Shown piece by piece: positions 3,201-54,356 of a stretch of 64,000 bases of DNA. Positions within the stretch are counted from its first letter, which is position 1. Each line of letters opens with the position of its first letter. Position numbers and translations under genes: made by a program. Under the pieces are notes generated by a model. It had not been told where the DNA came from, ran no database searches, and worked only from the letters and a program-made list of their open reading frames with translations. This stretch comes from a virus (lineage: Duplodnaviria > Caudoviricetes), in the IMG/VR virus record IMGVR_UViG_3300012983_000045, positions 7,875-71,874 of that record. One strand, 5' to 3'.

Positions 3201-6200
3201 AAATCGCTTCAAATCCATATTCGTTGCACAATTGTATAAATTCATTATATATTCGTTCGCAACTATCGTTATGTAATCGCTCCGCTAATTTTTTACCTTT
3301 ACATTTCTCGCAACAGCATTTATCTATCGGTTCTGACATGGCCAAATTATATCGTCCATACCATATGGGGAATATTTCACCACAATAATCACAAATTGCC
3401 TATACTGTTATTTTAGCAGTAGATGGTAAATCTTCTGCGTTTACATAAAATGATTCATCCCAATCGGTGAAAACATAACCTTTACTAACATAATGTTTTC
3501 GCGTATTTGGTCTCCATTTAACCTATATTTTTTGATTCGGAACTAACATTAATCCCTTTCCTCCTTATATAATATCATATATTTAGTCTACCATTTCGAA
3601 CCGCCAATCGCTTGCGGCTCTACTTCCCCACAACAGGGAATAGTCGTTGAACGTAATCCTGTTCGGATTTTCGCTGCTGATTGCCCATATATCCATACAC
3701 TTTTCAAGCGTTCACACTTACGTATATTTCATCGTTATGTTGTAGCAGTATAGCTTTAGGGTGTTCCAGCAATTAGATAGATAAGCGCAATATGATTCAC
3801 GCTTTCTTTTTGCTCAAGGCATCTTTGCGTAAGGAAATTAAATCCTAGAGCGCTTTGTTTTCATTTGTAATCTGTGTCTTGTATACATCAATAATAGATT
3901 TTTTCAGTTGCTCATTTGCAGACACACTCTGCTGAATTGTCTCTATATGTTGCCGAGTTTCTTCTTCGTACTGCTCCATAGATATGACGCCATTCTCATA
4001 TTCTTCATGAAGCTTCTCAAGAGCACCACGTTCATTTGCAATAAGCTGATTGTAATTCTAAATCTCCGCTCCATAGAGCGCAAGTTTTGCATACCCTTCT
4101 TCAGTGATTTCTATTTGATCGCCAGTATCAAAGATTTCTGCATCACTAATAAGACTATTGAGATGCTCAAAGTCAGATACAGTTTCTTTAATAATTCTCT
4201 GAATTCTTTCGAACGGCTCCCATCTGGTCTTACGGATTGCTTCCGCAAGTTCAATGTTAGCAGAAGCGAGAGAGATAGCAGTTTCACGAAGTTGCTGAAG
4301 TTTTGCATAAGCTTCGTTCCACTTTTCTGAACCAGGCTCCCATCCTTCGGCTTGTGCCTATGCCAAGATAGCATCTGCTTGTTTACCAATCTGCTGAATT
4401 TCAAGGTTGTTTGTGTCAATCTGGCCTTGATATGCCTGTCTACGTTGAGCAATAGAAGCATGCATTGTACTAACATCATATGGCATGCCTTTTCTTGTAC
4501 CGAGCTTAGTATAGTAGTCACCAATTGTTTTTAATGTACTAGATGCTTTAGATAGTCTTTCAATAACTTGACCAATTGCATCAATGTCAAGCTGTCGGAT
4601 TTTCTAGCCCATCTCTACAATAGCAGTATTAGTATCCCAAATGCTTGCCTCGAGATCAAATAATTTAGCTTTAGCTTCATGATATTCATCAGTATTTTTC
4701 TTACCAGCTGCCTCTAAATCACTAAGGATCTTGGTGTATTCGGTATATTGACTCGACAAATATTTCTGCTGTTCTTCAAGACGAACACGTTCTTGATTGT
4801 ACAATTGTTTGAATGTTCCGCTATTAGCTCTTGTTCCGGTAGCGGTATAATATGCTTCTTTAGACTGAGTGACTTTCTGAGAGGACTGAACCATATGAAG
4901 AAGTCCACCCCATTTTTTATCAGCTTTATCAAACTATGCTTGTGCAAGTTCAGTCGCCGCATTCTTCGCAGCCTTCTGAAGTTCAACCAGACTTGTCTTA
5001 CTTTGCCAATATTCTTCCGTCAATTTAGCAAGCTGAGTCTGTGCTTCTTGATATTCTTTGCTGTTTACACCATATATCTTAGCAGCATTAGCAAGTTCTT
5101 TTTCATAGTCCTTCATTGCCTGTTCGTTGTATTTGACAATTTCTTTCTGACGTACAATCTGAGACCCCATATTCTTACGGATAACTTCACGGTCTTCACC
5201 ACCACTTGCCTGATAATATTCAAGCATAGCTTTTGTTGATGCTTGGATAGCAGAAGAGCGTTCTGCAAGAGTACCATATTTACTGACTATGTTGTCGAGC
5301 TTCATACCTTGGAGTTCTTTGAGTTGCTTCAGTAAATCATTGTTGGCATCCTTCACATCTTCGGCTTTGTTATACCACTCCATGTAGCTTTGAATGAACG
5401 TCTGCACACCTTCATCATATGACTTGATATCAATGTCGTCACCGTTCTGAATCTTACCAATAATTTCTTTAGCTTGATCGGCACTCACAAGTCCAGATGT
5501 AACAGCCTAAGAGGTAACTTTATCAGCCTATGCCATATATGCATCATACGCACGTTTGTTACGACCCATCAGAGATTTGGTATCTTTTTCATTACCAATC
5601 AGTTTTATGGCTTGGTCTATATATTTATTCTTTGTCCTTGTATCTGTGGCAAGTTCAGATTGAGTAAGGAATCTGTCGAGTTCACGCTGTGTTCTTTCGA
5701 GCGTAATCTCAGCCATATCAAACCAATCTTTTATTGCATCCTGGAAATTCTTGATTGCTTCTTGGATGGCATCTGCTGATTTCTTGGCTGCATCGCTAAC
5801 AGTAGTCGCAGCTTTATTTACATTATTTTCTGTCTTTGATGAGACGCCAGAAGATGGGGTAGTTGCGCCTGGAGTGTTTGGTTTTGGATTCCATCCTCCG
5901 GCAGTCCCCGAATGAGCTGGCATACCATTATATGCCAACGTTCCACTAGCTAATGCACGAGCACCGCCAACAAGATGACCTTTGCCCGAAGCACGACCAG
6001 TAGACATGAGTGCTTTGACTTGGCTATGAGAGAGTATTACATCGCCCTTCTTTAAGTTTTCAACGTGCATACCTCCGGGAAGAATTGAGAACACACCGTT
6101 CCTAATTAATCCTTCTGCCCCGACCTCATTTACAAGAGCCGTTTCGTCTTCTTGTAGAGAAACATTTGTACCCCTAGCATGAGCCGGAAGAGTATTGATA

Positions 6201-9200
6201 ACATTATATGCAGTACCAGATGCATGAGCGTGAAATGTCCCGGCAGCATTACTTGTTGGAAGCCCACTCACATGCGCAGCTACACTAATACTAAATTGTC
6301 TGTTAAGAGCGTTATGTATTGCCAATAGCATATTACCAGTATTCGCCGTAATACTAATTGCCGGATTCAATCCCTGAATATGGCTAACAGCAATATCGGC
6401 TGCTTTAACGGCATTATTCGCGTCGCCATTAATCTTCATCACCGGATGCTTCTTTTCAACAGATGCGGATGCAACATCAGCCGCTTTAACAACATTCTTG
6501 GCATCACCATTTATTTTCATTGTTGGCGGATTTTCTTCAACAGACTGCTTGGTTTGTTCAATGACCTTTGTCGCCTCTTCGTTATCTGCCACAATATCCA
6601 TTTTTGCTTCCGTTATTGCCTACGTGAGGTCATCTATTTGTTCAGCAGCAATTTCAACTTTAATTGGGGCTTCTAATCCTTCAATCTAACTCTTAAGTTC
6701 TGCTAATTCTTGTTTGCCCTATTCGGTATTAAGATCAATATTAAACTCTTTTGCAAGATCTTCGTCTGCTAACGATTTCAGTTCTTCGAGTCCAGATATT
6801 GCTTCGTCTTTTCCTTCGAGGATTGTATTAATGTGTATCTAACGATCATATGTTTTAATTTCGTTATCTGTAGCGAGTGCCTCGTTGGATCCATCCTCCA
6901 TACCTCGTCTTGCTTTTATTAATTGAACTTTCCTTTGTTGCAGTGTTTCATTGTCTAATTGAGAAATGTCGCCACCCAAATTAAACGAAATATCAACATC
7001 CCCGCTTTGTTGTAGTTCTTTTATTTTTTGCCTACCCTGTTCAAGCTATTCATTAAATTCTTCTGCGCCTTGAATAGATGGACCAAATTCTGCATCGGGC
7101 GTCCAATCAATAAGTCCCATCTAAGACAAAACAGTCATTAATGCTTTGCCATATTCCTGACCAAGGCCGAGTTCTTTTAGAATTCCATCGAGTGCCTATT
7201 CAGCACCTTCCAATTGTGTTTTCCCGTCGCCAAATTCAATTGTTCCAAGTTCTTCGTCTGAGAATTGTTTAAGTGTATTAAGATACTTGCTGATGGCCTC
7301 GTTGTAACCATTTATCTTATCACCATCAAATAACTCATGATTGTGCGCAACTTCGGCATATCGGTCTGCCATTTCTTTTGCGTCTTCGCCCTTAAATGTT
7401 GCCATAAGAACAGGCAATTCAACCTATTCACCATTTAATGCTTTTCCGGCATATTCTTGTAATGCTTCTGGTTCTAGTACATCGCCATTCGGAAGGATGG
7501 GTGTCATAACAACGGCTGTCTGATTATCGTCGCTGGTATACGTCTAACTATATAATGTCGCATAATCTCCATCGAAATCAGGATAAAATTCTTGCATCAT
7601 GCGAGGAGTAACTCTGGCTCTGTGATTTAAGTCAACATCTCCAAATTGAGTCCCAGACACGAAATCCGTCATTGCGGCCTCATAACTAGCGCGATCAATT
7701 GTAAAATCTTTCAAATTAATCGTAACACCATATTCATCTGCCATTCTCTGAACTTCGTCCATGATACGTTTCATACCAACTTGATCGCCCATGCTTTCCG
7801 CAGTTGCATATGCCTAACGAAGAGCATCAACTGTATCCGGTAAATTCTTGAATCCTTCAATAAAAGATTGCTGAGAACCAGCAACATAATTATTTGTGGC
7901 GGTATCCAAATTAGTAAGGTCATCTTTTAATCCTTGAATCTAATTACGTTTTTCCGCCAACACATCTTCACTTGCCCCGACAGCTACAAGTTGCGCGTAC
8001 TCAAGCTGTGCGTCTGTCAGCTGTGTTTTGAGATCACTTGCTTTTGCAGATGCTTCTTCAAGAGAGGACACATATGCAATATTTCCGCCGTAGTCATTGA
8101 TGCGTCCCATCATGTCCATAAAGAACTCATCAGACATACCCATTTCAAGAGCGGCCTTTGCAGAATCCGCAAAATCAAGAGAATATCCTGTCAATGCATC
8201 ATATGTTGCCAGTCCTTTAGACACGAGGTCGTTAAGGAAGTTGCTGACTCCAGATGCGTCATCCGTAAAGTATCTCTCAGCTTTCTTATAATTCTGCTCA
8301 AATGTCTTCCAATCAGTTCTGCCAAACGGATCCAGATACGCAGCACGAGTCTTAAAATCATCAGTTCCAATCAGACCCTTATCAAACAGATCTTTTGCTG
8401 TCTTCATGTATCCCTGAGCGGTCTCATAATCAGCGCCTTCATTCTTCGTCTGGTCGGCACGAGCAATAGCAGCAAGACGAGAGAAGTTCTACATCTATTC
8501 AGCATACGTAGCATAGTACTGTGCCTGTTGACGCATATATTCAGCCATTTGTTCATTAAGTTCACGAACCTTGGATGTATCTCCAGCTTTTGATGCGCGG
8601 TCAATTGCTTCTTGAATATCATTCATCTTAGATTCAAAATCTTGATTAATGATTTCATTCTGCTGTTCAGCGAGGCGTTGAAGTTCCATCATATCTACTT
8701 TTACGCCGTCAGCAGTAGAGTAGAAGATAGAAGAGATATCAGCAGCAGAACCAAGCTCACTGAATCCAGTTGTGATTTGCCTCATTGTTTCAGCGGTCAA
8801 TCCGGTTTCAGATGTCATTTCAGACATTGCTGTAGAAATTGTAGAAGCAAGTTGCATTGCGTCAGATACCGCAAGATTCTTGGCTGTATCTTGATAATCC
8901 AGAAGAGAAGAGTAGAGGTCGTTTATTGTTGATTCGTTAGAACGCAACGTCTTTTGTTGATCTTCCGTGAGATTTCCAGATTTACGAAGTTCTGCATTCT
9001 AATCTTGTAAGTTTTTAATTTGCTTCTTTGTAAGGGCTGCAAGCTCTTTGTAATCTTTTACATTTGCTTTGAGACCTTGGGCCTGTTTTAAACTTATTTC
9101 TTCATTCTTTCTAGAAATGGCATCTGCGGTATCTTCGTATGCAAGTGCGAGATTGTCTAATGCGTACTATTGTGGAGTATACGAGTCAGCAGCATCTCTA

Positions 9201-12200
9201 GAAGCCTATGCAGACGCTCTATATTCATTTGCTTTTACTGTATATGTATCACGAACTCCTTGACTAAGACTTGTGTTTTTCGCTTGATTATCCCAATATT
9301 CAGCCATTTCCATGTTTTGTTCGTAATCAGATTCATACAAATCGTGAAGAGACTGATATGATGCTTCTCTGCTTTCTCTACCATATTTCTTATCAAGTTC
9401 TATTTCTTTTTCGTATTTTTCTTCTTGTGCTTTATTCGATTCAATCAGTGCTTTCTATTCATTTGTCCCAACTTCAAGCTATTCTGTTTGAGCATTATAT
9501 GTTTCAATAACAGACTGCCCCCAATTATTTGCAGCCTTATTTAATCTGTCCTCTGCAACTTTATATATTTTTGAGTCAGGTTTATTTTTCGAAGAAACAT
9601 CCTAAAAATTCTTTAGTGCTTTTTCGTATTCTCCATAATATATATCTTGAATCGCTTTCGTATTATTAACAATACCAGTATAATCATCACTTGTAACGGT
9701 AATGCCTTTTGCTTCTTTAATACCAATAGCGGTTCTGTATGCATCAGTAGAATTATTTAGCATTCCTATTTCTTCTTCTACAAGTTTAGCATGAATTGTA
9801 ATTTCTTTATTGTCATATTCATTAATCCACTGTTCTATTGTCCAGGTTGCAGCTTCTGGGTCAGCGGCTAACTGAACCAGTACAGCGGTATCGAGATCTC
9901 CATATTCAGCCTGAAGGGCTGATAAAACCTCTTGTGTTTTTGCCTAGACATTTCTTTCATAATTCTATTCATATCTTTGTTGATCTTGTTCATTTGCAAA
10001 CTAAGGTTGTTCATCTGTCTAAAATGCAGACTTCAGAACTTCCTCTGCACTTTTTGCGCTTGTTTCTAATAAATCCAAAGAGTCAATTATAGTTCTTATA
10101 TAGTTATTCCAATCGTCTTTTTCTGAATCAGTTAAATCTGCCTTTTCTCCGGCTGTCTTCATTAACTCAACAAATGATTTGACTTGCTCATCGCGTTTTT
10201 TAATTAATTGATCAAATAATTCGTTGTCATCTTGTAAATATTCACCTAGACCTTCAAACTGTGATGCTAAATCTGCTTTTGTACTAGAATCAAAAGTCCC
10301 AGATTCTTTATATTGTTGAATAGCAGTAGTGATTGATTCTATTTTGGATTTGTAATTATCTGCATCTTCTGTGAAAACTTCATCGGCAAAAATGTCTGAC
10401 ATTTTTCCTTCTGATGGGATATCTCGCAACGAATCTTTATACCTCTCAATGGCGTTAATCAATGCTTCAAATGTTGGTGGTAAATGATTCTCATTTAAAA
10501 CTTCGTCCTTAAACATACCTTTTATTAAATCTTGTTGTTCTTGATTTAATGTTTTTATATCTTCCCAATCATATTTAGCACCATTTCTATTGTATTTTTG
10601 TGTTTTGGAATCATACTCAACTGTTCCGCCAAGTAATTTATAAATATCATTTCTATTTTTAGTTGCTGTCCAATGTAATCCATCACTGTCTTCATACATA
10701 ATATCAAGACCAACAGCTATCTGTTGACGAATCTATTCATCTGGGAATAAAGTTTCTAGTAAGTTTCCAACATAGTCTTTATATTCTTCATTTGTTAAAT
10801 CATCAAAATTTAATGTAAATAAATCAGATACCTAAACTTTTGTGACTTTACCAGATTCAATAGCACCCTAAATAGGAGCAATAATTTTATTTGTTACATT
10901 ATCATATATTTCTTCCGCATCCCAATCGATATCATCCCAATTAAAGTTGTATAATGAACCACCTATAGCATCTCTAACCTATTCATCTAATTGGCGATAA
11001 GAATGATCTCCATATAAAGATTCTACTAAATGCGGAACAAAATTCTATGTCCAATTTAATCTGAGTTTTTCTTGATTTGATGACAACTTTTCTTGTTCTG
11101 TCTATAGTATATTCATAATTCCATCACTACGAACAGATAAATATTCTTTAAATTCTTTAAGTTCTTCGTCCGTTTGTGCTTGGAATGTATATGATAATCT
11201 ATCTTTACTACCGGCAGATCTAATTCTTAAATTATCAAACTAACCAGATTTCCTTGCCTATTCAAAAATTGATTCTATCTATTCGGCATAGATACTATCA
11301 CGGCTAATACTAAATCTTCTAACAGAACCTTCGTTTAAAAACCCGCCTTCTAAATCGTTAACATTAAATAATGAATATAATTTGTCATTGTACAAATTCT
11401 GAATATCTTTTGACTTTTGTATTTCTTTGGAAGTTTCCTCGTTTTCTTGTCTGATTTGTTTTGCAATTGCAGGAAGCTTTGTTTGTATATCATAAGCATC
11501 TATTTTTCTTATGGTATTAAGGTATTCATCTAATGTCTATTTTGCTTTTGATGAATCTTCCGATAAATCTACTAATTTTGATCCGTAATTTGTCGTACCA
11601 GTAATTAGTGATGGATACAAAGATGCAATATCTTGATTTATCTATAAGAATTCTTCAAATTCTTCGTTAGACAAAGAAACATTCGTTATGTTATTACCAT
11701 CCATAGATACGCCACTTCTTAATTCGGAATATCTATCTCCAAGAGTTTTTGTCTATGTCTTTTTGTCGTTAAAAGATGATTCTATTTCCTGAACGGATGT
11801 CTTAGCGGCTTCGCCAGCCTCTATAATTTCTTGTTTAGTCTCTATAAGTCTATCAACAACTGTTGCAATTCCTTCAACAATCTTTTGAGCAACAAACATT
11901 ACCACCATACCAGCAATAGCATCCATTACTGCACCGGCAAAATTCTCTATCCCACCAACTACACTCTAAATAGTGCCTTTAAATCCATACGCTTTGTTTG
12001 ATAAATCATCCCAAGCTTTCCCTACAGAATATAATTGTTTTTCTTGGTCACTCAATCCTTTTGTTGCATTTAAAATCTCAGCCGGAACAGCTTTCCCGCT
12101 AGCAGTATATTGAGCAATTGCATCACTTAATTTCATTCCCTTTTTAAAATCAGACTAGAAAAATTCATTAATTTCTTTTGGCATCTAAGAAGAAAAATAT

Positions 12201-15200
12201 TGTTTAATATTTCCTATAATTTCTTTAAAACTAGATTTAATACCCTCTTTGCTAAAACCAGATTTTATAATATCTCCGAAATTAAACAAACCCTTTCCCT
12301 AGATTCTCATAATAGCACTTATTGCTCCGGCTATTATCATTCTAAGGCCGCCAAAGCGGTCTGAGAGAGTAGTAATAACATTTATAGCATTTGTACCAAA
12401 ATCAATTATACCCTTTATCCAATCCGAATCTATTGTTGTAGAAAGCAATTCTTGCAACCTGTTCTTAAACTAAGCAACTTTACCCTCTATTGAATCAAGA
12501 TATTTATCTAACTCTTGTTGTGCACTTCCGTCAGAATTCAAAGACTATTCATATACTTCTTTTAAAACATCAAAATTATCAAGAATACTAGCAGCAGCAG
12601 CAGCTCTTGTTTTACCAGCTATTGTTTCAAGTAAGAAGCTTTGTCTGTTGGTGCCCATTTTCTTGTCTTCTTCGCCAATTTCTCTCCAAACTTCAGCAAT
12701 ACCTTTGAGCATTTCATATGTTGATTTATAATTACCACTTTCATTAAGAATATCAAAACCTTTAAATCCATTTGATTGAACTTTTGTTGCATCCATAATG
12801 GTCTTACGAAGTTTCGATTGAGTTGTAATAAGTCCATCAACTTCTTCTCCAGCTTCTTGCATATCCTATACAGAAGTACCCGTGAGTCGAAGAGAAATAG
12901 TACGTAATGATTGGCCAACCATCTGTGGATTTTGAAGAACCTGATTACCGGCTACAGTTAAAGCAACAGCTTCATCCAATGAATTTCCAGCAATTTTCAA
13001 TGTTCCCGCTGATCTTTGAAGGGACTCCGCTAATTCTGAAGTACTAATACTGAAATTATTACCAATGTTATTTAATTTATCTATTATTGTTCCTTTATCT
13101 AATTCCTAGTATGCCTAACTCATCGCAGTCAATGCTTCTGTTGCAGCTCCAACATCCTAAAATTCAGATACATTTAATAATATAGTTGTTTGTTCTGCAC
13201 TTTTCTTTGCTTCCTATAAATTTTCACCCAATCGCAACCAATCGGCAGTAGAACTTTGAATCTAAGAAGCAGTAGTACCAACGCGATCTGCAATATCAAA
13301 AGTTTCAAGTTGATAATCCTATAATGTAGACAGCGATTCATTGCTAACTTTACGCATCTCGGTAAGTTGAGTATCCAAATCTGTTATAACGCTTATTGCC
13401 TCACGACCATAACGAATAAAATCCTGAAAGCTCAAATAATATGTAGCAAGGCTTGTCATCGTGTTTTTAAACTAATCTTTAAACCTATCACCGAGAGATT
13501 TTCCCAGTAATCCTTTTTCTGCGGCATCTCCTGTAATCTTCTAAAACCTAGCATTCCATTCTTCTGCAGCGCCTTTACTTCCAATCTAAGATACATCAGA
13601 CATCAAAAGTTTTAATTCTTCCCTATATTCTTTTGCAGCAATCTTATTCTAATCCATCCACTTCTAAACTTTTGCAAGAGAAGAAGCTTGCCAGTCTTTG
13701 GCAATCGGTTGCCAATCAGAACTTTTTGCTAATTTTTGTTGCTCTTTTGCTATTTCTTCTAAATCATCCTTAACTTTATCCAACTCATCTATGTCTTTAA
13801 CATTAATATCAATATTACCAACTTTTGATTCTAATTCTCCAACTTTTTCTAGCCACCCATCTGGATCAGATCTCCATTCTGCCTGGTTTTTCATTTTAGA
13901 TATTTTTGTAGCTAATTTGTCGCGAAGTTTTATAGCCTCCTATTGAAGGGCGTTTTGCTCCAACATTTCTTGCGTGTATTTTGACGGATCTGCACTAGCT
14001 TGACTTTCGTATACTGCATCAGACAATTCTTTTGCAGAGGCAATCTATTTATCTGTTAATCTCAAACCTTCTACTTTTGCATCATCCCACTGTTGCTCAA
14101 TTGTAATAATAGACTATAATGCATTGGCTATCTAATCATATTCATTCTATGTTAATGTAGCACCACTGATACCTTTTTGATATAATCTTTGATATGTTTT
14201 TTTTGCATTGTCATATTCACTTAATTCAGATACTAAACTTCGTCTTCTTTCTTTATTTAATTCTCTAGTTTGATCTTCTTGCGCTTTTTCTTGCGATTTT
14301 ACAAATCTCCTATAAGCCGTTGAAACTGTGTCCTAATTTCCAGGCAATAATTTTAAAGCATTATCATACTAATCCTATGTTATAGATTTATTATTAAGCA
14401 ATTTATCAAGTTCTTCTCTTGCAGCTTTTGTGGCAGATCGCAATTCTTCCATTTTTAAAATAATAGGAGATATGTCGTCTTCTTCAATATTCTTACCATA
14501 ATTTGCATCAGCAACAAAATTGAAAAATTCGTCCTATACAGATGCGTAATCCTTAAAGGTTTTTGTAATACTATCAAACTATTTCTATATATCAGCTTGC
14601 TATTTCGTATACGAAGCCTAATCTTGTTGATTCTTCCACTCGGCTTCACTACGTTGAAGCTATTCTTGTAGTTCTATTCTTTTCTTTGTAGCAGCTTCAT
14701 CTGCTTTAGCAACTCTTTCCAATACAGCCTATTTTGTCTAAGATAATTCTAATCCGGATTTCTTTATATCATTTAGAACGTTATATTTTTCAATTAATTT
14801 ATCCAATTCAGCCTGTTCTTCTGGAGCTAGATTTGTTTCTACTGCTTTTTTCATTGTTAAATCGGCGTATCTGTCAGCATCTCTCATTTGTTCTTTATAT
14901 TCATTTTGAATAGCGCGGTTCTATTGGTCTATCTTTTTATAATCCTAACTACGCTATTTAACCCAACTCGCCTTGTTAATATCAGGATTTGTCTCATCAT
15001 CAAGCTATCTCAATATGTCATTTAATTCATCCTATAGTTCTTTTGTGTCTGCGGCGGAATCTTTCATTTTCCCCAATAGTACCTAAATATCTGATTTAAG
15101 TCTTTCGCGCCCGACATCTGGTCTATCCGCATCTAATTTGGTAGAGGATTTCTAGTCTTTTATAGCCTATTGAGCCAATCGTTGATATTCTTTAAGTCCA

Positions 15201-18200
15201 GCATTAATCTCTGCCCATTGGGATTCTGTAGCCTTATTCCCAGCATTTTGAATATTCTCAAAAATGTCACGAATTTTTTTCTCTTGTGCCTCAAGAGCTT
15301 TAATATCTGATTCAGGAAGTTTTACTCCAGCATTTTCAACATATTTCTTTTTTAAATTATCTAAATTCCCCCTCTACGTAATTAATTTAGCATTTGTTCT
15401 TTCTGCCTATTTTTGAGCATCCCTATCTCTTTTTTCATTTTCTTTAATTGCCTATACCCATGCATTATCATACTGCATTTCTCGTTTTTTTTGCAATTCT
15501 GCCTCAGTTAAACGGCCTGCTTCAATTCTTCTTTTTTTAAAATCCTGTACTTGTGGGCTATCTGGCAAATAGCCATTTTCTTTATAATATGTATCTAATT
15601 CTGTTTGTGCTTCGTGTAATTGGGTTCCCAATATCTACAATTTTTTCTACAAACCTTCTATTGGTTTCCCAAGGGATTCTGCGTTATATATATCCTCATA
15701 TGTTTTTATAATTTGTTGATCGAGAGATATAATTTCTTTTTCAAGTGCCTCAAATGAAGTGGTTATTGACTCGACTTCATATGATTGTCCTTCTTCGTCT
15801 TCTTTCATTCGTACTGTTCTAATTTGCTGCCTGCCTGTTCTTTCCTTATATTGACTAAGCTCGCCATCAACATCTGTTTGACTTATATAAACACCATTAC
15901 GCGGAGATTTATTTTTAGGCTCTTCTACCTTTTCTTGTTCTTTCTAAAGCGCCTACAATTCTTTGCGTAATTCTTCAAGCGCCTATTCCGCATTTATACC
16001 ATCATCCGAAATCTTATTCATGCAAGATTGCCAAATAATAGGAATTTGTTCAACCGTCACACCAAATTCTTCAAGAATTTCTTTTGAGCCTTTAACGAAT
16101 TTTGTAGTATTTTCCTATAATGGAGTAGTAAACTCGGTTCCAGATTGAATACCGTCAAAAGCTTCTCTTATTTTTTTGCCAATATTCCCAACATCAAGAT
16201 CATTTGCTTTTAATATTTCCGCTATAATCTCTTCAATGGTTGATTCGCCTTTGTGCATTACTTCCATTAATTGTTTCCAATTCTAAACTTCATTGTCGTC
16301 AACCACATTGAAAACTGTATAGAGTCCTGCTTTTTCGTTCATTTCACTTAGAATTTCTGGTAATTTTATTCCTCCATTATTTACCATTACATTAAACCCT
16401 AAGCTTTGCCTATCATTATTCCAATCGTCTCCAGATTCTTCTCTATATTCTGGTAATATTTGTATGTGTCTTCCTTTTAAATACTTCCTTATTCTTTGAG
16501 CATCTGTTTGATATTGATCATCCTTTGTTTCTTTTATTAAATTTTTATCATCTTCTAAAATGTTTTTTATAGAACTTAAATCTAAATCTTCTCCATTTTC
16601 TAATGTTTTAAACATCTCTTTAAACGAACCGGTTAATTTTTCTACAGTTTTTTGTGTAAGCCCTAATTTTTCTCCAATATCCTAAGCAAGCCGAGTAGCA
16701 GCATCGGAATATTTTTCAAGATTATCTTCCTCTTGTGAAACTGGAGTTTCATTAGATTTATATCTTTCTTCGACATTACGTCTTGCCTATTCCCACGCTT
16801 CTCGTTGCAGATTTTGTTCTGTTTCGTATCTTTCTTCTAATACAGGAATTGTTGCTTCAATTTCTGCGCGTTCTTCTTTTAGTTCTTCTATTCTTTCTCT
16901 ATATCCTCGCCTTTTTTCTTCAACCTATTTATCGAATTCTTCCCCTTTTGGTGTCATATCTTCGCCAAACAATCTAGAATAATCCTTATAAAACAATTTT
17001 AATTCTTGTTCGGCATTTTCTATACTGGTTGTACATCTTGTAATTATTTCATCTATTTCATTTATTCTATTTTCTGCCGCATCAAGGTTGTCTTCAACTA
17101 TCTATCCTTTATTAACATCATAAATTTTTTCAAATTCTTTTTGTATTTCAGCGCGTTTATTTTGCTCATCAATTATACCTTGAATTCGATCATCTTCCGA
17201 CTTGTCCCATACTTCTCCGGCAGCATAATTACGTTTTTCCAGCATGTCACTTTGCTTTTCAAGTTCGTCAGTAATATTAGCCTATAAAATGGACTCCTCT
17301 TTTAAATCATATATAACAGTTCCATACGTTGTATCAGCGTAACGTGTTCCCCTAGTATCTACGCCGCCATATCCAAGAGACTTCATGAATTGAGTTGAAA
17401 CACTATCTTTTCTATCTTCAAAGCTAGAATTTTCCATATAATTTTCTAGCTCGGACAATTTTGCCGCAAATTCATTTATATTCAATACAGATTTTCCAAA
17501 AACATCTTCAAATTGATTAAATAATTCAATAATAGAATACCTTCGCTCGCCTTGAGTATATCTGGTTAAATGCTATAAAAAATCATGTAATTTACCAGCC
17601 AAATCATCATTGTTTCGTGCATCAAAAAGATTGTCGTATTTTGATATATCAACACTTGTAAATGGAAGTTTTGAGTAATTATTACTATCCATTAATTTAT
17701 GTTTTGTTGCTGCATCTACAAAATAATGTCCAGTGCCAAAATATCCAGTTCCACGATTAGATCCATAAAATCTGCCATTTGTTTCCGCTTTATTCAATCT
17801 AGACACAATACCTGCATGATAAATAACATCATCAATCGCAGCTGCCGTTTTTTTTGTTTCTTCTCTTGCTTTTTTCATACTATCAGTTATTCTTGATCCA
17901 TCCATGGAACTTCCCATAGAATTTGTTAATGTAGGTAGAACAGTAGGAGTAGGATTACTCATAGTCGTTTTTGTATCAGTAACAATCCTTCCATCCGGTC
18001 GTTCTCTACTAACTGAATGATGTTGTTCTGTTTGCGTACCAACAGGCTTTTTAATTTCTGTTTCATCAGCCAATTCGCCTTTTACTTTAATTCGATAATC
18101 TCCAGAGTCTAAAGCTTCTTGAATTTGATTTGGTAATGATATTTCAGAATCTAAACCTATTTTTATTGGATATACATTTCCCTCGTCGATGGCTTCCTAT

Positions 18201-21130
18201 ACTTTCTCTTTTATTCCTCCATCTACGACTTCTTTACCAGATTTATTCATTGCACCAGATAGAGCCTCTGATAAATCTTGTGCAGCCTTTGCAACCTATT
18301 CCATCTTATCAAGCAATTCGCTTAAAAATGATGTTATTCCACCGTCCTCGGCTTCTTTAATTCCAAAACCATCTTTAAAAATCTTTTGTAGATTTTCAAA
18401 AGCATCAGTAAGGCTTTTTATATCCTATTCATAATCTTTTATATTACCAAGTTTGGCAATATAATCCATAAACCCAAGATCTTCTTCTGACTATTCGCTC
18501 TTTTTACCTATGCCATATAAATTTCTAATGTTCTTACGTAAAGTTGACATATCTCCTTTTGGAGAACCCGACCCTTTAAGATACTTATATACAGAATAAT
18601 AAGGACTTGTTTTCTATGCTTCTTTAACTAAACCTTTATTCTGTTCTTTCCATTCATCAAACGTTCCTTTAAATTTCTTAGCTTCTATGTCGCCTCGAAA
18701 ATTGTCCTATAACTATTTCCATACCTAATCATTTACTAACTCTTCTGTTGCAGTGGTAACATCCTTTAAAAACGACATAATAGAACGAATACGTTCCTCA
18801 ACATTGGTATATTGATTAACAACGCTAGATTTTGATAATGCCGCAACAACATCTTTTCCTGCATATTGTTCTCTAAGAGTCGAAGAATTTAACAGACCAA
18901 CCATAAATTGCTATGCGTCATTTATTAATGGATCTTGTTCTTTAAATATTGAAAGTACTTTATCATATGCCCTTTCATATCTCTCTGCTTGCTCTCTCCA
19001 ATAGTTTTCCTCTTCCTTTTTTTGTTTATTAGCACCGTTGGCGTCAACATAATAATTTGTTGGACTATTTGTAGCACGAGGCTTAGAAACCATTTCTCTA
19101 AGAGACTTCTGATTTTCACGCATTCTTTTTGTGGTGCCTTCACCAATAACACCAATTGATTTAGAGATATTTGTCAACGTAGAATTCAAATCTTCTAAAC
19201 TTTTTCTAAACCCCTAAACACTATCTACATTAAAAGCATTATCAATAATATTTCCCAAATCTCTAAACTGAGAGAGAAGAGAAGTAATGCCAGATTCATC
19301 ATCTATTTTCCCAAATGCATCAGAGATGTTATTAATCTGTGCAACAAGATCCTAGAGTAATTGAATTAAAACTGCGATTTCGTCAGTACCCCAAGATTCT
19401 CCTGGTTTAAAATTTAACGTCGCTTCACTTAATTGTTTATTAACATACTCTATAAGTTCGCCATATGTTTGGAGTTTATCATAATCATCAATTAAATAAT
19501 CAGTATAAGACTTTACACCATTGTCATCTTGATTATCAACATAGCTCGTGTATCGTTCAATATCATCTTCGATTTCTCTTTCTACATCTTGTTTTCTTCG
19601 AATTAATTGAGAGAGTACATCCTGTAAATGACTTATCCTATTTTCGGCATCACTATCAATGTTTTCAATATATGAATAATTCGCTTGATTATAGTCCCAA
19701 TCATCTTCTATATTCTTTTTTTTATATTTCTAATAAGCCCGACTTCTTATTTCTTCCACAGATTCATATGCTTTTCTCTGTCTCTCTACTGCTCTTTCTA
19801 TTCTTTCGGTTTCTTCTTCAAAGTCATCCGACAGATCATCATATATGTCATCACCAGAATTCCCACGCATCTCATTATTTATATCTTCTTGTTGTTTAAT
19901 TATAAATTCTTTCTGTTTTTGAAGTTTTTCGGCGAACTCTTTATATAGAGCATCAACATCTGCCGTATCCTCCTCGGCTCGTTTTTTATAATCAGATAAC
20001 CATGATTGAGTACCATATTCTTTAAAATCTTCATTCCCAAGAATTAAATCTTCCATTTGTTTTGATCTTTTTTCACGATGTTCTTTTGCAGTTCTTTCAT
20101 ATTCTTTTCTCTAATCCTCAATTTGTTTTCTAAAATTCTATATATAGTTATCTCTTTCAAACGAAGAGTCATAGACATTATTTAATATATCTCTAGATTC
20201 AGAAACCTAAGCTTTCGCAAGACCATTTTCTTTTGGTATCTCATCGGATAATATACGCAATTCATCCCTTAACTGGTTGGCTTCATTTCGTAATTGCTAC
20301 ATTCTTTCTATTTGACTATCAAAATAAGCATCGTTACCGCTACTGTCGAGTTCTTGTCCCATTACTTCAGTCATGGCTTCTTTTAATTCTTCTGCTCTTT
20401 TTTGTATTTCATTTAACCGCTTTTCTGTATTCTACCATGCCTATTCCGCTTCTCTTGCTTGTTGCTCTAGTTCTGCAGCTTCAATTATGCTCTTTTCCGC
20501 AGGATTCCAATGTTCATTAAAATATCTGCTTGCAGTGCCTCTGAGTTTATCATTTGCATCTATGGCCATCTATTTCTGTTTTGCTGATGTTAATTGGTTG
20601 TTTTTATCTGGAGCAAGATATCCGCTACTAATCGCCATCCCGGTTCTTAGAGACTCCTATAATCTACTAAACATATCAGAAATACGACCATCAATTTCTT
20701 TGCCAACTTTTTCATAATATTGACCAAGCTCATGGTAGTTTCTGAAAAAATTTTGAACTTCTCTGCTTGTTAGTTTTAAACCTTCGTTATTTAATTTTGA
20801 ATATGTAGATTGTAAAGAAGATTCAAGTTCTTTTACTCTGCTCTATATATCGGAACTATTAAATATGTCCTAATCAGAAATTCCAAATTCTATCTTTTTT
20901 CTTGATTTTTTATCTAATTTATTCTATGTTTTAATTATTTGTGCTGCAGCTTTTTCCATATCATCTGATACTTCTGTATAATTTTGATTTATTTCGTAAG
21001 TAGTGCTCTAATTTTGTAATTTCCCCTATGCTTCTGCAAGTTTATCTATTGCTCCAGTCAATTTCTCTATGCTAGAAACCGCATCTTCGATTCTTTTATT
21101 TCCGCTTCCATTGCTTATTATTTTCGACAT
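277..21130 (-). CDS. Giant tape measure protein, ~6,428 aa, join(21130..3799, 2231..277), read with TAG=Gln
   Basis: All 15 listed minus-strand fragments in this frame from 20056 to 4604 end in TAG. The four fragments below the intron share a second frame, reached by removing 3798..2232. The TP901-type tape-measure core (LDTQLTEMRKVS...AGNQVLQNPQMVGQSLRTISLRL) is at ~13400-12850. Real stop TAA at 279-277. Absence of TAA/TGA was spot-checked, not exhaustively verified. Confidence 0.85.
2232..3798 (-). mobile_element. Group I intron (1,567 nt) in the tape measure gene
   Basis: P1: exon AAGCGU pairs with GCGCUU with a U.G at the splice site. R element GTTCAACGACTA and S element GAAGATATAGTCT are present. 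Terminal G at 2232. Splicing gives in-frame KKA-Y-YDYNKTLK. Confidence 0.85.
2335..3549 (-). CDS. Intron-encoded homing endonuclease (Cys/Zn repeats plus Vsr/DUF559-like PD-(D/E)xK C-terminus), TAG-recoded, 404 aa
   Basis: ATG at 3549 after GGAGG. One frame through several TAGs joins track ORFs 3094..3345 and 2335..2799. C-terminal RFDFFL...IEFDGIYH motif. Sits between the R and S elements. Confidence 0.75.
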
Positions 21131-47802: not shown

Positions 47803-47910
47803 ATTGTTTACCTCCTACAGTAAATTCTCCCACTATATATAAACGCAACTGGGGAGGTAGGAGACTCCCCAATATAATGGTGGCCAAACCATTATACTTT
47901 TGCGTTATAG

Positions 47911-48001
47911 CAAGCCCGGTGCGATTCGAACGCACATCAGCGGCTTCAACGCGCTTACAGATTTAGAGTCTGCTGTTTTCAATCCATTAAACTACGGGCC
48001 T
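47911..48001 (-). tRNA. Amber-suppressor tRNA (anticodon CUA), class II with long variable arm
   Basis: Cloverleaf: acceptor AGGCCCG/CGGGCTT, G73, D stem GTTT/AAAC, anticodon arm GCAGA-CT-CTA-AA-TCTGT, 21-nt variable region, T arm GTGCG-TTCGAAT-CGCAC; CCA not encoded. Confidence 0.9.
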
Positions 48002-52613: not shown

Positions 52614-52752
52614 ATTATTTCACTCCTAAATGATATATTTACGCACAAAAATAAGACGGCATTAAGCCGCCTTAAAAACAATGCGTATTATGTTTTATAG
52701 TCATTAGCGTTATCCAAGACGCACCACGAGGAGGTTGACTATCTTGCGTCTT

Positions 52753-52826
52753 TTGCAGGAACCAGATTTGAACTGGTGACCTCTGGCCCATGAAGCCAGC
52801 GAGCTTCCGAACTGCTCCATCCTGCG
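52753..52826 (-). tRNA. tRNA-Met(CAU), initiator-type body with altered anticodon arm
   Basis: CGCAGGA/TCCTGCA acceptor with C1:A72 mismatch, A11:U24, anticodon arm CTGGC-TT-CAT-GG-GCCAG, T arm ACCAG-TTCAAAT-CTGGT. Confidence 0.85.
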
Positions 52827-52833
52827 TCAATAA

Positions 52834-53031
52834 TTACGGATTATCATGAGGGTTGTGACCCTTGCCATGACCATTGTGATGACCATTGTCATTGTCATAG
52901 CCCCATGCGTGACCGTGACCATGTCCGTGACCTGGCTCTTCTGGAATACAAGAACCACCGGAACAAGTAATAATATCTTCAAAGTCAAGTCTGATGAACT
53001 CAACCGAAGGTGCCGTATATTTCTGTTTCAT
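52834..53031 (-). CDS. His/Gly-rich peptide with YxxP leader (RiPP-precursor-like), 65 aa
   Basis: MKQKYTAPSVEFIRLDFEDIITCSGGSCIPEEPGHGHGHGH...; GAGGTG RBS. Confidence 0.7.
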   Translation of the reverse strand: MKQKYTAPSVEFIRLDFEDIITCSGGSCIPEEPGHGHGHGHAWGYDNDNGHHNGHGKGHNPHDNP

Positions 53032-53129
53032 ACTTTCTCACCTCTAAAAAAGTGGCAACCATTGCAGCCGCATACAAACCATTGAGTCTATTATGCAACA
53101 CTACAAAAAACTTTACTGCGGATTTTATC

Positions 53130-53216
53130 GAATATTAGACTTTACGAATTAATCTTTATTACATAAAGATCTTTGATATATAATCGTTAACCGCTAAATA
53201 TTGAGCATTGAGCTTT
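53130..53216 (-). repeat. Degenerate 7-nt-period array in a ~330-nt noncoding region
   Basis: AAAGCTC AATGCTC AATATTT AGCGGTT AACGATT ATATATC AAAGATC, a 10-nt linker, then AAAGATT AATTCGT AAAGTCT AATATTC. Confidence 0.55.
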
Positions 53217-53374
53217 TACACAATGTGTCATAGAATTATACAAATATACACTCATCTGTATAAATACTATCTGCATACCCAATAACGCAGATTATATATT
53301 TTCCTGAAGCGGAGATAAGGCTCTCCGCAAGCCACATAAGTCTATGGTTTTCGCAATAGCTGCCAAAATTAATA

Positions 53375-54010
53375 TTATACTTCTATATAAGTAACTGAAT
53401 TACTGATACTCAGCCGGACATCAACATCCGCTTCGAATGCATCGATTGCCGATTCAAGCGTCTGAATTTTCTCATATAAACCCAACGGATCTATAAGTTC
53501 CCATTCATTTTTGGCTCTGTACGGGTCAGATATAGTGGATAAATCCGTTTCAGATACTTTCTTCTCGGAATCCTTCCCAAGAAATGTTTCAAGCATTTTA
53601 TCCACTTGAGCATCAACACGATTATTTTCTTTGGTAACCATATCTGTTATCTTCGCATATTGGCTTTTCATTTCACCTAATAATGCTTTATCATAACAAA
53701 TTGAATTCTTGCGCTCAATTGCCTCTGCAACAGTATATGTTTCTCCGGCAATTTCAACAGTAGTAACAGCGTTGCTTTGCACTACCGCTGATTTAATTTT
53801 TGCTCGATTGGCAATAAGGTCTTTAACCGACTGATACGAAGACTTTGCAAGTTCTACAAAATTATCAGTCTTGAAGTTCCCCACTTTGTCCGAGGACTTC
53901 TTCTTACCGCCAATAAAGACAGAAGAGCAGAGTGCTTTTGTTATTTTCGAGTCATACAGTTTCAATTCCGTAAGTGCTTCAGTAATACTAATTCTTCTTG
54001 TATCAGCCAT
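53375..54010 (-). CDS. Conserved helical protein, possibly DIP1984 (septicolysin)-like
   Basis: Intact 211-aa ORF; pattern EAL.EL...I / LI..R...SNA.T.V...G..TVAEAI / D..LS.SN..T.IE. Confidence 0.7.
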   Translation of the reverse strand: MADTRRISITEALTELKLYDSKITKALCSSVFIGGKKKSSDKVGNFKTDNFVELAKSSYQSVKDLIANRAKIKSAVVQSNAVTTVEIAGETYTVAEAIERKNSICYDKALLGEMKSQYAKITDMVTKENNRVDAQVDKMLETFLGKDSEKKVSETDLSTISDPYRAKNEWELIDPLGLYEKIQTLESAIDAFEADVDVRLSISNSVTYIEV

Positions 54011-54077: not shown

Positions 54078-54356
54078 TTAGTTCAGAGCGTCTTTAACAG
54101 CTTTACCGAACTTAGCCTTCGGCGAAAATTTTGCCGGGATCTTAATTGATTCACCAGTCCGGGGATTGCGACCAGTTCTTGCTTCCTTATAATCTGCAAC
54201 AAACTTGATTGCGTTGAACGGAGTAACTCCATCATCATCCTTCATGTGATCGAGAACAATCTCCCTCATTACGCCGAGAGTTTCGCGAATAGCCTTCTGT
54301 GTCATACCAGTCTGAACTGCTGCTTCCTTAATAAAATCTGAATGGTTCATAATCAT
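54078..54356 (-). CDS. hup: HU-family DNA-binding protein (YonN-like)
   Basis: ARTGRNPRTGESIKIPAK..PKAKFGKAVKDALN arm motif. Confidence 0.9.
   Translation of the reverse strand: MIMNHSDFIKEAAVQTGMTQKAIRETLGVMREIVLDHMKDDDGVTPFNAIKFVADYKEARTGRNPRTGESIKIPAKFSPKAKFGKAVKDALN

Follow-up and report, generated by a model that had tools for sequence, protein, structure and literature searches.

Introduction

TRAP and HutP of Bacillus subtilis form β-rich rings on the 5' leaders of other operons, where they control termination. The sites of HutP are UAG triplets separated by 4-nt spacers, which gives a period of 7, and TRAP binds 11 repeats. In these two systems, and also with Cas7, the period of the RNA repeat matches the protein subunits. 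A different arrangement is found in type III toxin-antitoxin systems (ToxIN, CptIN, TenpIN), where repeats of roughly 34-36 nt lie upstream of the toxin gene, with a terminator between the two parts. In VIPR, a ribonucleoprotein (RNP) has been demonstrated that contains a RAMP protein (RRM core, G-loop and thumb) and the vrRNA, which is about 100 nt long, often occurs in arrays and repeats every 5 nt (YNNGG; GGY/NN pentamers), the NN positions being hypervariable and the pentamers a precedent for an RNA repeat period that matches protein subunits (bioRxiv 10.64898/2026.04.26.720920).

We analysed a 64,000-nt window, part of a 71.9-kb IMG/VR virus record (IMGVR_UViG_3300012983_000045) with an estimated completeness of 39%. 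The original prediction for this DNA was that a 211-aa helical protein might form an oligomer and bind, one unit per subunit, the repeated RNA or DNA encoded just behind its gene. Here, we describe the downstream region as a 313-nt RNA with phased heptads, follow the gene and the RNA through phage and bacterial genomes, and propose that the pair is probably an undescribed protein-RNA particle.

Results

Genomic context of the locus

The genes in the window run on the minus strand. In the late region (about 1-47 kb), open frames are found only if TAG is read as sense, as illustrated by one frame of 5777 codons that carries 125 TAGs, and a tRNA with anticodon CUA is located at 47910-48001. The locus encoding the protein and the RNA sits in the non-recoded part of the phage. 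The 211-aa gene (53375..54010, minus strand) has as its neighbours an HU-like gene (54078-54356, PF00216) and, on the other side, a 65-aa His/Gly-rich ORF (52834-53031) and a tRNA-Met (52753-52826). Two tRNAs are the only Rfam matches that pass in the whole window, and at E<=10 nothing beyond a 16.5-bit noise match to PinT was found within 53053-53365.

The gene, the GC hairpin behind it (GCGGAGAGCCTTATCTCCGC, 53328-53309) and the gap devoid of ORFs are as originally described. No ORF of at least 60 aa occurs within 53032-53374, either with table 11 or with TAG read as Gln, the second code being included because the late genes of this phage recode TAG. A hidden ORF in the gap is thus ruled out under both genetic codes.

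The heptad arrays

Array 1 (53168..53216, minus strand) comprises seven units with the consensus A-A-A-G-N-U-Y, namely AAAGCTC, AATGCTC, AATATTT, AGCGGTT, AACGATT, ATATATC and AAAGATC (53216-53168), in which A1 and U6 hardly ever change, unlike the drifting positions 2-5. A 10-nt linker (TTTATGTAAT) leads to array 2 (53130..53157, minus strand), which has four A-initial units, AAAGATT, AATTCGT, AAAGTCT and AATATTC (53157-53130), the first of them lying partly in the stem of hairpin Ph. The predicted succession of seven A-initial heptamers, a 10-nt linker and four more heptamers at 53216-53130 is therefore exact.

Position 6 is T in 7/7 units of array 1, and neither strand of the window contains a longer run of A1/T6 heptads than these seven. 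The run statistic was picked post hoc and gives P = 0.0002 for the intergenic region (5000 dinucleotide shuffles) and 0/200 for the whole window, so the periodicity stands out from shuffled sequence, as had been predicted. With an unbiased statistic based on the two best columns, period 7 alone stands out (12/12; 0/200 shuffles).

The period was also expected to appear in homologues, and it does. Among 94 distinct homologous sequences, whose hosts belong to several phyla, the A1 of each heptad is kept in 97-100%, and U6 carries 1.5-2.0 bits of information in 6/7 units and 0.9 in the fourth, while the autocorrelation of the information content reaches 0.67 at lag 7 and 0.62 at lag 14. All seven A1/U6 units are intact in 59/94 sequences, the 49-nt array 1 is free of indels in 79/94, and the spacer to array 2 measures 8-10 nt in 77/94. 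The four units of array 2 start with A in 100, 100, 98 and 87% of the sequences. Alignment of the four closest relatives reveals a conserved hairpin, a variable stretch, a T-T/C-A triplet every 7 nt and invariant 3' blocks, and in most of 80 loci from bacterial genomes the anchor motif TCGATnAAATCC is found ~85 nt past the best heptad window.

Five groups of close relatives were used to compare the rates of change within the heptads. Differences affect 6-10% of sites at positions 1, 6 and 7 and 13-62% at positions 2-5, the latter being about equal to or below the third-codon positions of the gene, which indicates that positions 2-5 are near-neutral, AAG-biased spacers and not a hypervariable code. 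The deciding evidence is comparative: conservation among homologues shows that the 7-nt period is under selection.

Extent and fold of the RNA

Comparative analysis indicates that one structured, knotted non-coding RNA takes up the entire gap from the stop codon to the ribosome-binding site of the following gene. This RNA of 313 nt (53053..53365, minus strand) extends from the 5' strand to the 3' strand of the closing helix P1; it starts 10 nt past the stop codon (3-20 nt across loci), and 8 nt separate its end from the following ribosome-binding site. The predicted fold is a closed, knotted core composed of a 13-bp P1, two pseudoknots and the helices Pa and Pc, and the tract predicted to loop out of this core is mostly single-stranded and carries the seven heptads, a small hairpin and the four further heptads. 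We infer that the RNA is made from the strand of the gene; the simplest arrangement would be a shared transcript whose 3' part is the RNA.

In P1, the 5' strand UGGCAGCUAUUGC (53353..53365, minus strand) pairs with the 3' strand GCAAUGGUUGCCA (53053..53065, minus strand), i.e. 53365-53353 with 53065-53053. The median contiguous helix is 13 bp, versus 7 in shuffles, and the mean duplex energy is -20.4 kcal for cognate strands versus -14.0 for non-cognate ones. There are 78 distinct P1 helix sequences among the loci, and other lineages build the helix from very different letters, as in a T5-like phage (AAGCUAGUAAAUC/GGUUUACUAGUUU).

Pseudoknot 1 (53309..53333, minus strand) includes the GC hairpin, with a GCGGAGA/UCUCCGC stem and a GCCUUA loop (GCGGAGAGCCTTATCTCCGC in DNA), and is formed by GGCU (53333-53330) pairing with AGCC (53322-53319), i.e. 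the last stem base and the first three loop bases of this hairpin. Both stem and loop covary: the stem shows compensatory changes among relatives, and the knot pairs as GGCU/AGCC, CCUG/CAGG, CCCG/CGGG or CACCUU/AAGGUG, with cognate pairings differing from non-cognate ones (Mann-Whitney p 3e-4). In pseudoknot 2, the 5' strand CUUAUG (53335..53340, minus strand) finds its partner CAUAA in the Pc loop (53095-53091). Covariant pairs are UUACA/UGUAA, UUACGC/GCGUAA, UCUCGU/ACGAGA, AUCUUA/UAAGAU and UAAACA/UGUUUA, and the median energy is -5.7 kcal for cognate versus -3.8 kcal for non-cognate pairs (Mann-Whitney p 2e-12).

The region between pseudoknot 1 and array 1 (53217..53308, minus strand) is a variable, unconserved insert which is short or absent in bacterial versions; depending on the locus, the array begins 91 to 636 nt past the stop codon. 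The insert contains a local hairpin and a sigma-70-like TATAAT that is not common to relatives. Hairpin Ph (AUCUUUAU-GUA-AUAAAGAU, 53152..53170, minus strand), with CUU / AAG as its core, joins both arrays and is 89.7% paired in the alignment (helix 1). Downstream of it, the motif UUCGAUAAAAUCC (53120..53132, minus strand) is near-invariant, with up to 2.0 bits per position, and by eye bears some likeness to a T-loop.

The 3' domain (53068..53121, minus strand) consists of helix Pa, CCGCA (53121-53117) with UGCGG (53072-53068), enclosing hairpin Pc, AGU (53102-53100) with ACU (53087-53085) around a loop at 53099-53088. Pa is 99.6% paired, with 4/5 pairs changing on both sides and <=6 pair types, and Pc is 77% paired, with all 4 pairs covarying. 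The covariation score of Pa and Pc together is reached in 0/500 shuffles, the count of pairs changed on both sides is reached in 7/500, and controls in which the partner was slid give 0.03-0.11 versus the observed 0.497. RNAalifold on the MAFFT alignment recovered Pa only, the remaining helices coming from manual or duplex analysis. The covariation predicted for the region downstream of homologous genes is found in P1, Pa, Pc, Ph and both pseudoknots. Given the G-U pairs in the helices and the fixed orientation, the conserved feature acts at the RNA level and not at the DNA level.

Several candidate elements were rejected. The GC hairpin is not an intrinsic terminator, as it is not followed by a U-run, its AGCC pairs upstream and it lies inside the RNA closed by P1. 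The TATAAT at 53240-53235 was discarded as a promoter because it is unconserved and also lies inside the RNA. A first-guess 3' hairpin, Pd, which had been built into the covariance model R1, proved to be wrong, its bases forming the 3' strand of P1, and a pairing of the 3' GGCUG with the loop of pseudoknot 1, suggested by duplexfold, is not general across families.

Linkage of the gene and the RNA

The covariance model R1 covers 177 positions, was built from 39 sequences and matches the window at 53039-53216 with 140.7 bits. It matches 100/100 protein-encoding loci, once each, downstream of the gene and on its strand, and these loci include T5-like, rV5-like, Vibrio, Pseudomonas, Lactococcus and Lysinibacillus loci that are absent from the building set. 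Five whole genomes or records searched with R1 gave one match each, adjoining the protein gene. Among 91 Bacillaceae genomes, the RNA was found in 17 and the protein in 16, and all 16 are shared and adjacent; the remaining genome has a partial RNA match without a protein match. The suggestion that related genes have similar 3' regions is borne out in the form of a conserved non-coding element. The linkage holds even where the proteins are only about 30-35% identical, and in hosts of several phyla. The co-occurrence pattern indicates that the RNA is obligatorily linked to the protein gene.

The carriers of this gene-RNA pair include lytic phages, both T5-like, rV5-like and Bastille-like ones and those of Vibrio, Pseudomonas and Lactococcus, in which it usually lies among tRNA genes, and it is also found alone in Bacillota chromosomes. 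The chromosomal neighbours of the bacterial copies are unrelated (a TetR regulator, Rok, a permease, an MFS transporter, AhpC), which shows that the gene and the RNA form a self-contained cassette; from its distribution, the cassette is horizontally mobile. The protein is present in 745 phage records. Most IMG/VR relatives, whose proteins are 37-78% identical, likewise have 300-700 nt free of ORFs behind the gene, and tRNAs often come next. The gene is followed by 360-560 nt without any annotated feature in the annotated phages checked, i.e. Salmonella phage Shivani (T5-like), PVP-SE1, Bacillus phage Thurquoise, Vibrio phage Athena, Pseudomonas phage phiPsa374 and Lactococcus phage AM1.

Rfam searches of related loci returned only tRNA and skipping-rope matches, both elsewhere in those loci; in three of them, the protein gene is immediately preceded by a skipping-rope RNA (RF02924). 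Neither the heptad RNA nor an RNP containing it was found described in Rfam 15 or in the searched literature, and literature searches on bacteriophage T5 ncRNA and on heptanucleotide repeats gave nothing relevant.

The 211-aa protein

The 211-aa protein belongs to phrog_1491 (E 9e-66) and resembles T5.085, to which PVP-SE1 gp082 is also annotated as similar. We found no support for the 'tail fiber' label of phrog_1491 and consider the T5 gene T5.085, annotated as 'tail fiber protein', to be mislabelled. The protein has no Pfam match at E<=1 and no match among NCBIfam and PADLOC models, and PDB sequence searches, with the single sequence or with a profile, returned nothing significant. In the Protein Atlas, it falls into unnamed viral clusters only, with DUF6847 as a weak lead at 0.87.

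The AF2 model (mean pLDDT 89.5) is built of long hairpins of helices, one tip of which carries a small sheet; its few strands are 3-4 residues each and there is no RRM core. The ToxN/CptN/TenpN fold is absent among the PDB matches listed for this all-helical model. Invariant residues of the family concentrate around SNA...TVAEAIERK. The protein is acidic overall, with a pI of 5.1-6.1 in 20/22 relatives, but residues about 21-70, in the N-terminal half, are net positive. No recognised RNA-binding domain was found in it.

The DIP1984 family and a 176-aa subfamily

The protein was originally thought to resemble DIP1984/septicolysin. We confirmed that 3kdq, PF20935 (DUF6847) and NF038048 ('DIP1984 family') represent one family, but membership of the 211-aa protein in this family did not hold up by sequence: neither NF038048 nor PF20935 matched the protein of the window or six homologues at E<=1, whereas the same models gave 159-183 bits with the true members L111 and L112. 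In a PF20935 search of the whole genome G001, the homologue of the 211-aa protein was likewise unmatched. The 211-aa protein, about 60 residues longer than DIP1984 proteins, is possibly a distant structural relative with a DIP1984-like fold and not a sequence member of this family. Behind two true DIP1984 genes, neither an R1 match nor heptads were found, and these genes share conserved blocks over about 230 nt downstream. In the searched literature, we found nothing on T5.085 or DUF6847, and nothing on structure or function under DIP1984, septicolysin or 3KDQ.

A subfamily of 176-aa proteins, which show weak DUF6847 matches and the motif IVEAIE, is present in 27/151 Bacilli genomes. Its hhalign alignment with the 211-aa family is colinear, with an E value of 0.0016 but a probability of 16%, indicating weak homology. 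The 176-aa gene is followed by a conserved hairpin with the loop GGUGAGACUCC and then by seven UKACC units spaced by 7, 7, 7, 8, 7 and 7 nt, which form conserved columns in ten aligned relatives. This RNA has no Rfam match. We treat the UKACC array as a lead only, because the strict period-7 statistic is not significant with about 10 aligned loci. The comparison of the two families suggests that each has its own repeat motif, built around a U-N-A core common to both.

Discussion

We consider it somewhat more probable than improbable that the cassette encodes a dedicated RNP, in which copies of the protein dock along the heptads. Several copies of the helical protein would bind the array, one per heptad and thus about seven on array 1, reading the invariant U6-N7-A1 (a UNR-type turn) and leaving positions 2-5 as a spacer. 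The knotted core could serve as a handle or as a nucleation site, and the likely contact surface would be the conserved basic N-terminal half of the protein together with the TVAEAIERK / SNA tip. Since the distribution of the cassette is patchy and mobile, we favour a role in the conflict between mobile elements and their hosts over a housekeeping role.

A broader proposal, which we hold to be rather doubtful, is that helical proteins of the DIP1984 fold form a whole class of RNA-templated assemblies, each subfamily being encoded upstream of its own RNA with seven units spaced by 7 nt, AAAGNUY for the 211-aa family and UKACC for the 176-aa family, around the shared U-N-A core. About seven protomers would then build a particle used in conflicts between mobile elements and hosts in phages and Bacillota.

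The strongest rival to a dedicated RNP remains an RNA that does the work itself. Synteny alone is also compatible with the RNA acting alone or with a universal host factor. The knotted RNA might act on its own or with such a factor, for example RNA polymerase, the ribosome or an RNase, and the heptads would be tertiary, multimerisation or decoy elements, with the protein as a co-expressed helper or chaperone. Ornate complexes made of RNA only have reportedly been documented, and the elaborate covarying fold, the position of the phage copies in tRNA clusters, as for ROOL and GOLLD near phage tRNA genes, the acidic protein without an RNA-binding domain and the Bacillaceae genome with a partial RNA match but no protein match would all fit such a machine. 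Nevertheless, we find it unlikely, given the fixed order, strand and co-occurrence in 100/100 loci and 16/17 genomes, the start of the RNA only 3-20 nt past the stop codon and the different repeat motif of the paralogous protein family. The proximity to the stop codon could instead indicate a cis-acting 3' UTR, the protein binding the tail of its own mRNA to control stability or translation in a gp32- or TRAP-style feedback, without any particle acting in trans. A ribosome terminating at the stop codon would melt the 5' strand of P1, only 10 nt downstream, which is consistent with this view. It is nonetheless improbable, because known autoregulatory operators need far less than a fold of 313 nt that contains two pseudoknots and whose conservation reaches from E. 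coli phages to Clostridia, and because the element lies 3' of the coding region and not at the ribosome-binding site. We give only slightly more credence to a toxin-antitoxin-like pair, in which the free protein would be harmful and would be sequestered by the co-transcribed RNA, causing addiction or abortive infection. Such a pair would explain a stand-alone two-part cassette that couples a protein to a repeat RNA, is patchy (16/91 species in one family), has unrelated neighbour genes, once including a Rok repressor gene, and also occurs in phages. It is at odds with the reversed order, in which the protein gene comes first with no terminator between the parts, with units of 7 nt instead of processed pseudoknot repeats of roughly 34-36 nt, with a protein that has no PADLOC or Pfam match and shows no ToxN, CptN or TenpN-like RNase fold among the PDB matches listed for its model, and with the maintenance of the cassette by strictly lytic phages, e.g. 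T5 relatives.

Two further explanations concern the heptads themselves. A layout like that of vrRNA, with alternating conserved and variable positions and a pseudoknot-bearing structured region, encoded by a phage, raises the question of a non-contiguous guide RNA of the VIPR type, in which positions 2-5 would spell a gapped DNA or RNA target presented by the protein. These positions are not hypervariable, their divergence being similar to or below that of third-codon positions in all 5 groups, and they are AAG-biased; moreover, the protein is helical and not of the RAMP/RRM type, and each locus has one RNA and no arrays, all of which makes a guide function very unlikely. Least credible of all is a DNA-level element (iterons, an origin or a promoter array) or a chance periodicity of AT-rich sequence. 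The region is indeed AT-rich and locally contains 16 sigma-70-like matches where 7.6 are expected, but chance is rejected by the shuffles, the promoter-like site is unconserved, and the strand-specific G-U covariation and the orientation fixed in 100/100 loci speak against an element acting as DNA.

With its closing helix, two pseudoknots and phased heptads, the 313-nt RNA is among the more elaborate bacterial and phage ncRNAs. It is new to Rfam, as its partner protein is to Pfam and NCBIfam. The pair occurs in 745 phage genomes, including relatives of the model phage T5, and in about a sixth of the sampled Bacillaceae species, and owing to this wide occurrence both E. coli/T5 and Bacillus offer direct experimental systems for it. 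Reading of the heptads by the protein, if true, would be a new mode of protein-RNA recognition, by a helical protein with a period of 7, and would add a new mobile two-part module, whose function may lie in defence, counter-defence or RNA metabolism. Even a minimal reading allows hundreds of genome annotations to be corrected.

Compared with described systems, the RNA shares with ROOL, GOLLD and skipping-rope RNAs its nature as a complex, conserved phage ncRNA often located by tRNA genes, but ROOL, GOLLD and skipping-rope RNAs are not known to carry a heptad array or to be linked to any single protein gene. With type III toxin-antitoxin systems, the locus has in common a two-part cassette of a protein and a repeat RNA, found on phages, plasmids and chromosomes. 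The proposed assignment to this type fails on its defining features of order, repeat size and terminator, since here the RNA lies downstream, its 7-nt units belong to one closed fold and no terminator separates the parts; the processing logic also differs, as does, apparently, the protein fold. TRAP and HutP resemble our proposal in that an oligomer would read motifs at a fixed spacing, one per subunit, with 7 + 4 units here. The protein is helical, with no match to the TrpBP or HutP families (Pfam, E<=1), and the cassette is mobile and phage-borne. Contrary to the suggestion of TRAP-like regulation, which would act on another operon, the repeats belong to a closed 313-nt RNA 3' of the protein's own gene, its ends joined by P1, with no attenuator. 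VIPR also combines a phage-encoded protein with an adjacent ncRNA that has short tandem units and a structured region with a pseudoknot, its RNP being demonstrated where ours is putative. The locus described here differs from it by a period of 7 with the unit AAAGNUY, by near-neutral, AAG-biased positions between the conserved ones, by a single 313-nt RNA and by a helical protein.

Genomic neighbourhood of the heptad RNA

Immediately after the heptad RNA, the structured RNA directly downstream of the gene for the 211-aa helical protein, lies a 65-aa ORF (52834-53031, minus strand) with a good ribosome-binding site, which is absent from the closest relative (locus L008). Its product, whose sequence includes MKQKYTAPSVEFIRLDFEDIITCSGGSC and whose C-terminal tail is rich in His, Gly, Asn, and Asp, has no match in Pfam, PHROG, NCBIfam, or PADLOC, and this tail is encoded by 6- and 12-nt repeats.

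Beyond this ORF, directly 3' of a tRNA-Met (52753-52826), the stretch at 52655-52752 (minus strand) weakly matches the F. prausnitzii HDV-like ribozyme (RF02682), with a score of 25.3 bits (E 0.053) that falls below the gathering score of 44. This stretch may be a tRNA-linked HDV-like ribozyme. A similar match was sought after the tRNA with anticodon CUA (47910-48001, minus strand) and none was found. The latter tRNA lies near the late-gene region (positions 1-47000), where genes are open only with TAG as a sense codon, as in the frame at 3797-21130 (minus strand), with 125 TAGs inside its 5777 codons. In-frame TAG is almost absent from the early/middle region, including the 211-aa gene.

Structured and candidate RNAs beside homologous and related genes

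In RefSeq phage records (for example NC_028754.1, 39313-39951, and NC_016071.1, 67474-68121), the label "tail fiber protein" is in wide use for homologues of the 211-aa protein, a name that has no backing from fold or context and apparently spread by label propagation. Three related phage loci have the skipping-rope RNA (RF02924, 37-63 bits) a short distance upstream of the homologous gene, at 2648-2735 in L005 and L007 and at 2642-2716 and 2749-2826 in L022, so that two different structured RNAs flank one gene there. The Bacillaceae genome G021 contains a partial match to positions 25-177 of the heptad-RNA covariance model (C4:201089-201244, 88 bits), and the protein-profile search of this genome gave no match; the copy may belong to a cassette in decay or consist of the RNA alone.

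A paralogous family of 176-aa proteins is present in 27 of the 151 Bacilli genomes. Within the roughly 200 nt that follow its gene (L115-L125 from Bacilli genomes; e.g. L114, minus strand), we observe a conserved hairpin with loop GGUGAGACUCC, followed by seven UKACC units spaced by 7, 7, 7, 8, 7, and 7. This region, which has no Rfam match, appears to hold a second repeat RNA, distinct from the heptad RNA and linked to a related protein. Downstream of two true DIP1984-family (NF038048) genes, the regions L111 1927-2260 and L112 1930-2260 contain neither heptads nor an Rfam match, and share the conserved blocks ATTGTTACATG, GTGAGGGnGGGC, and AGGCGAG over about 230 nt; on this comparison of just two sequences, the stretch may be a third associated RNA.
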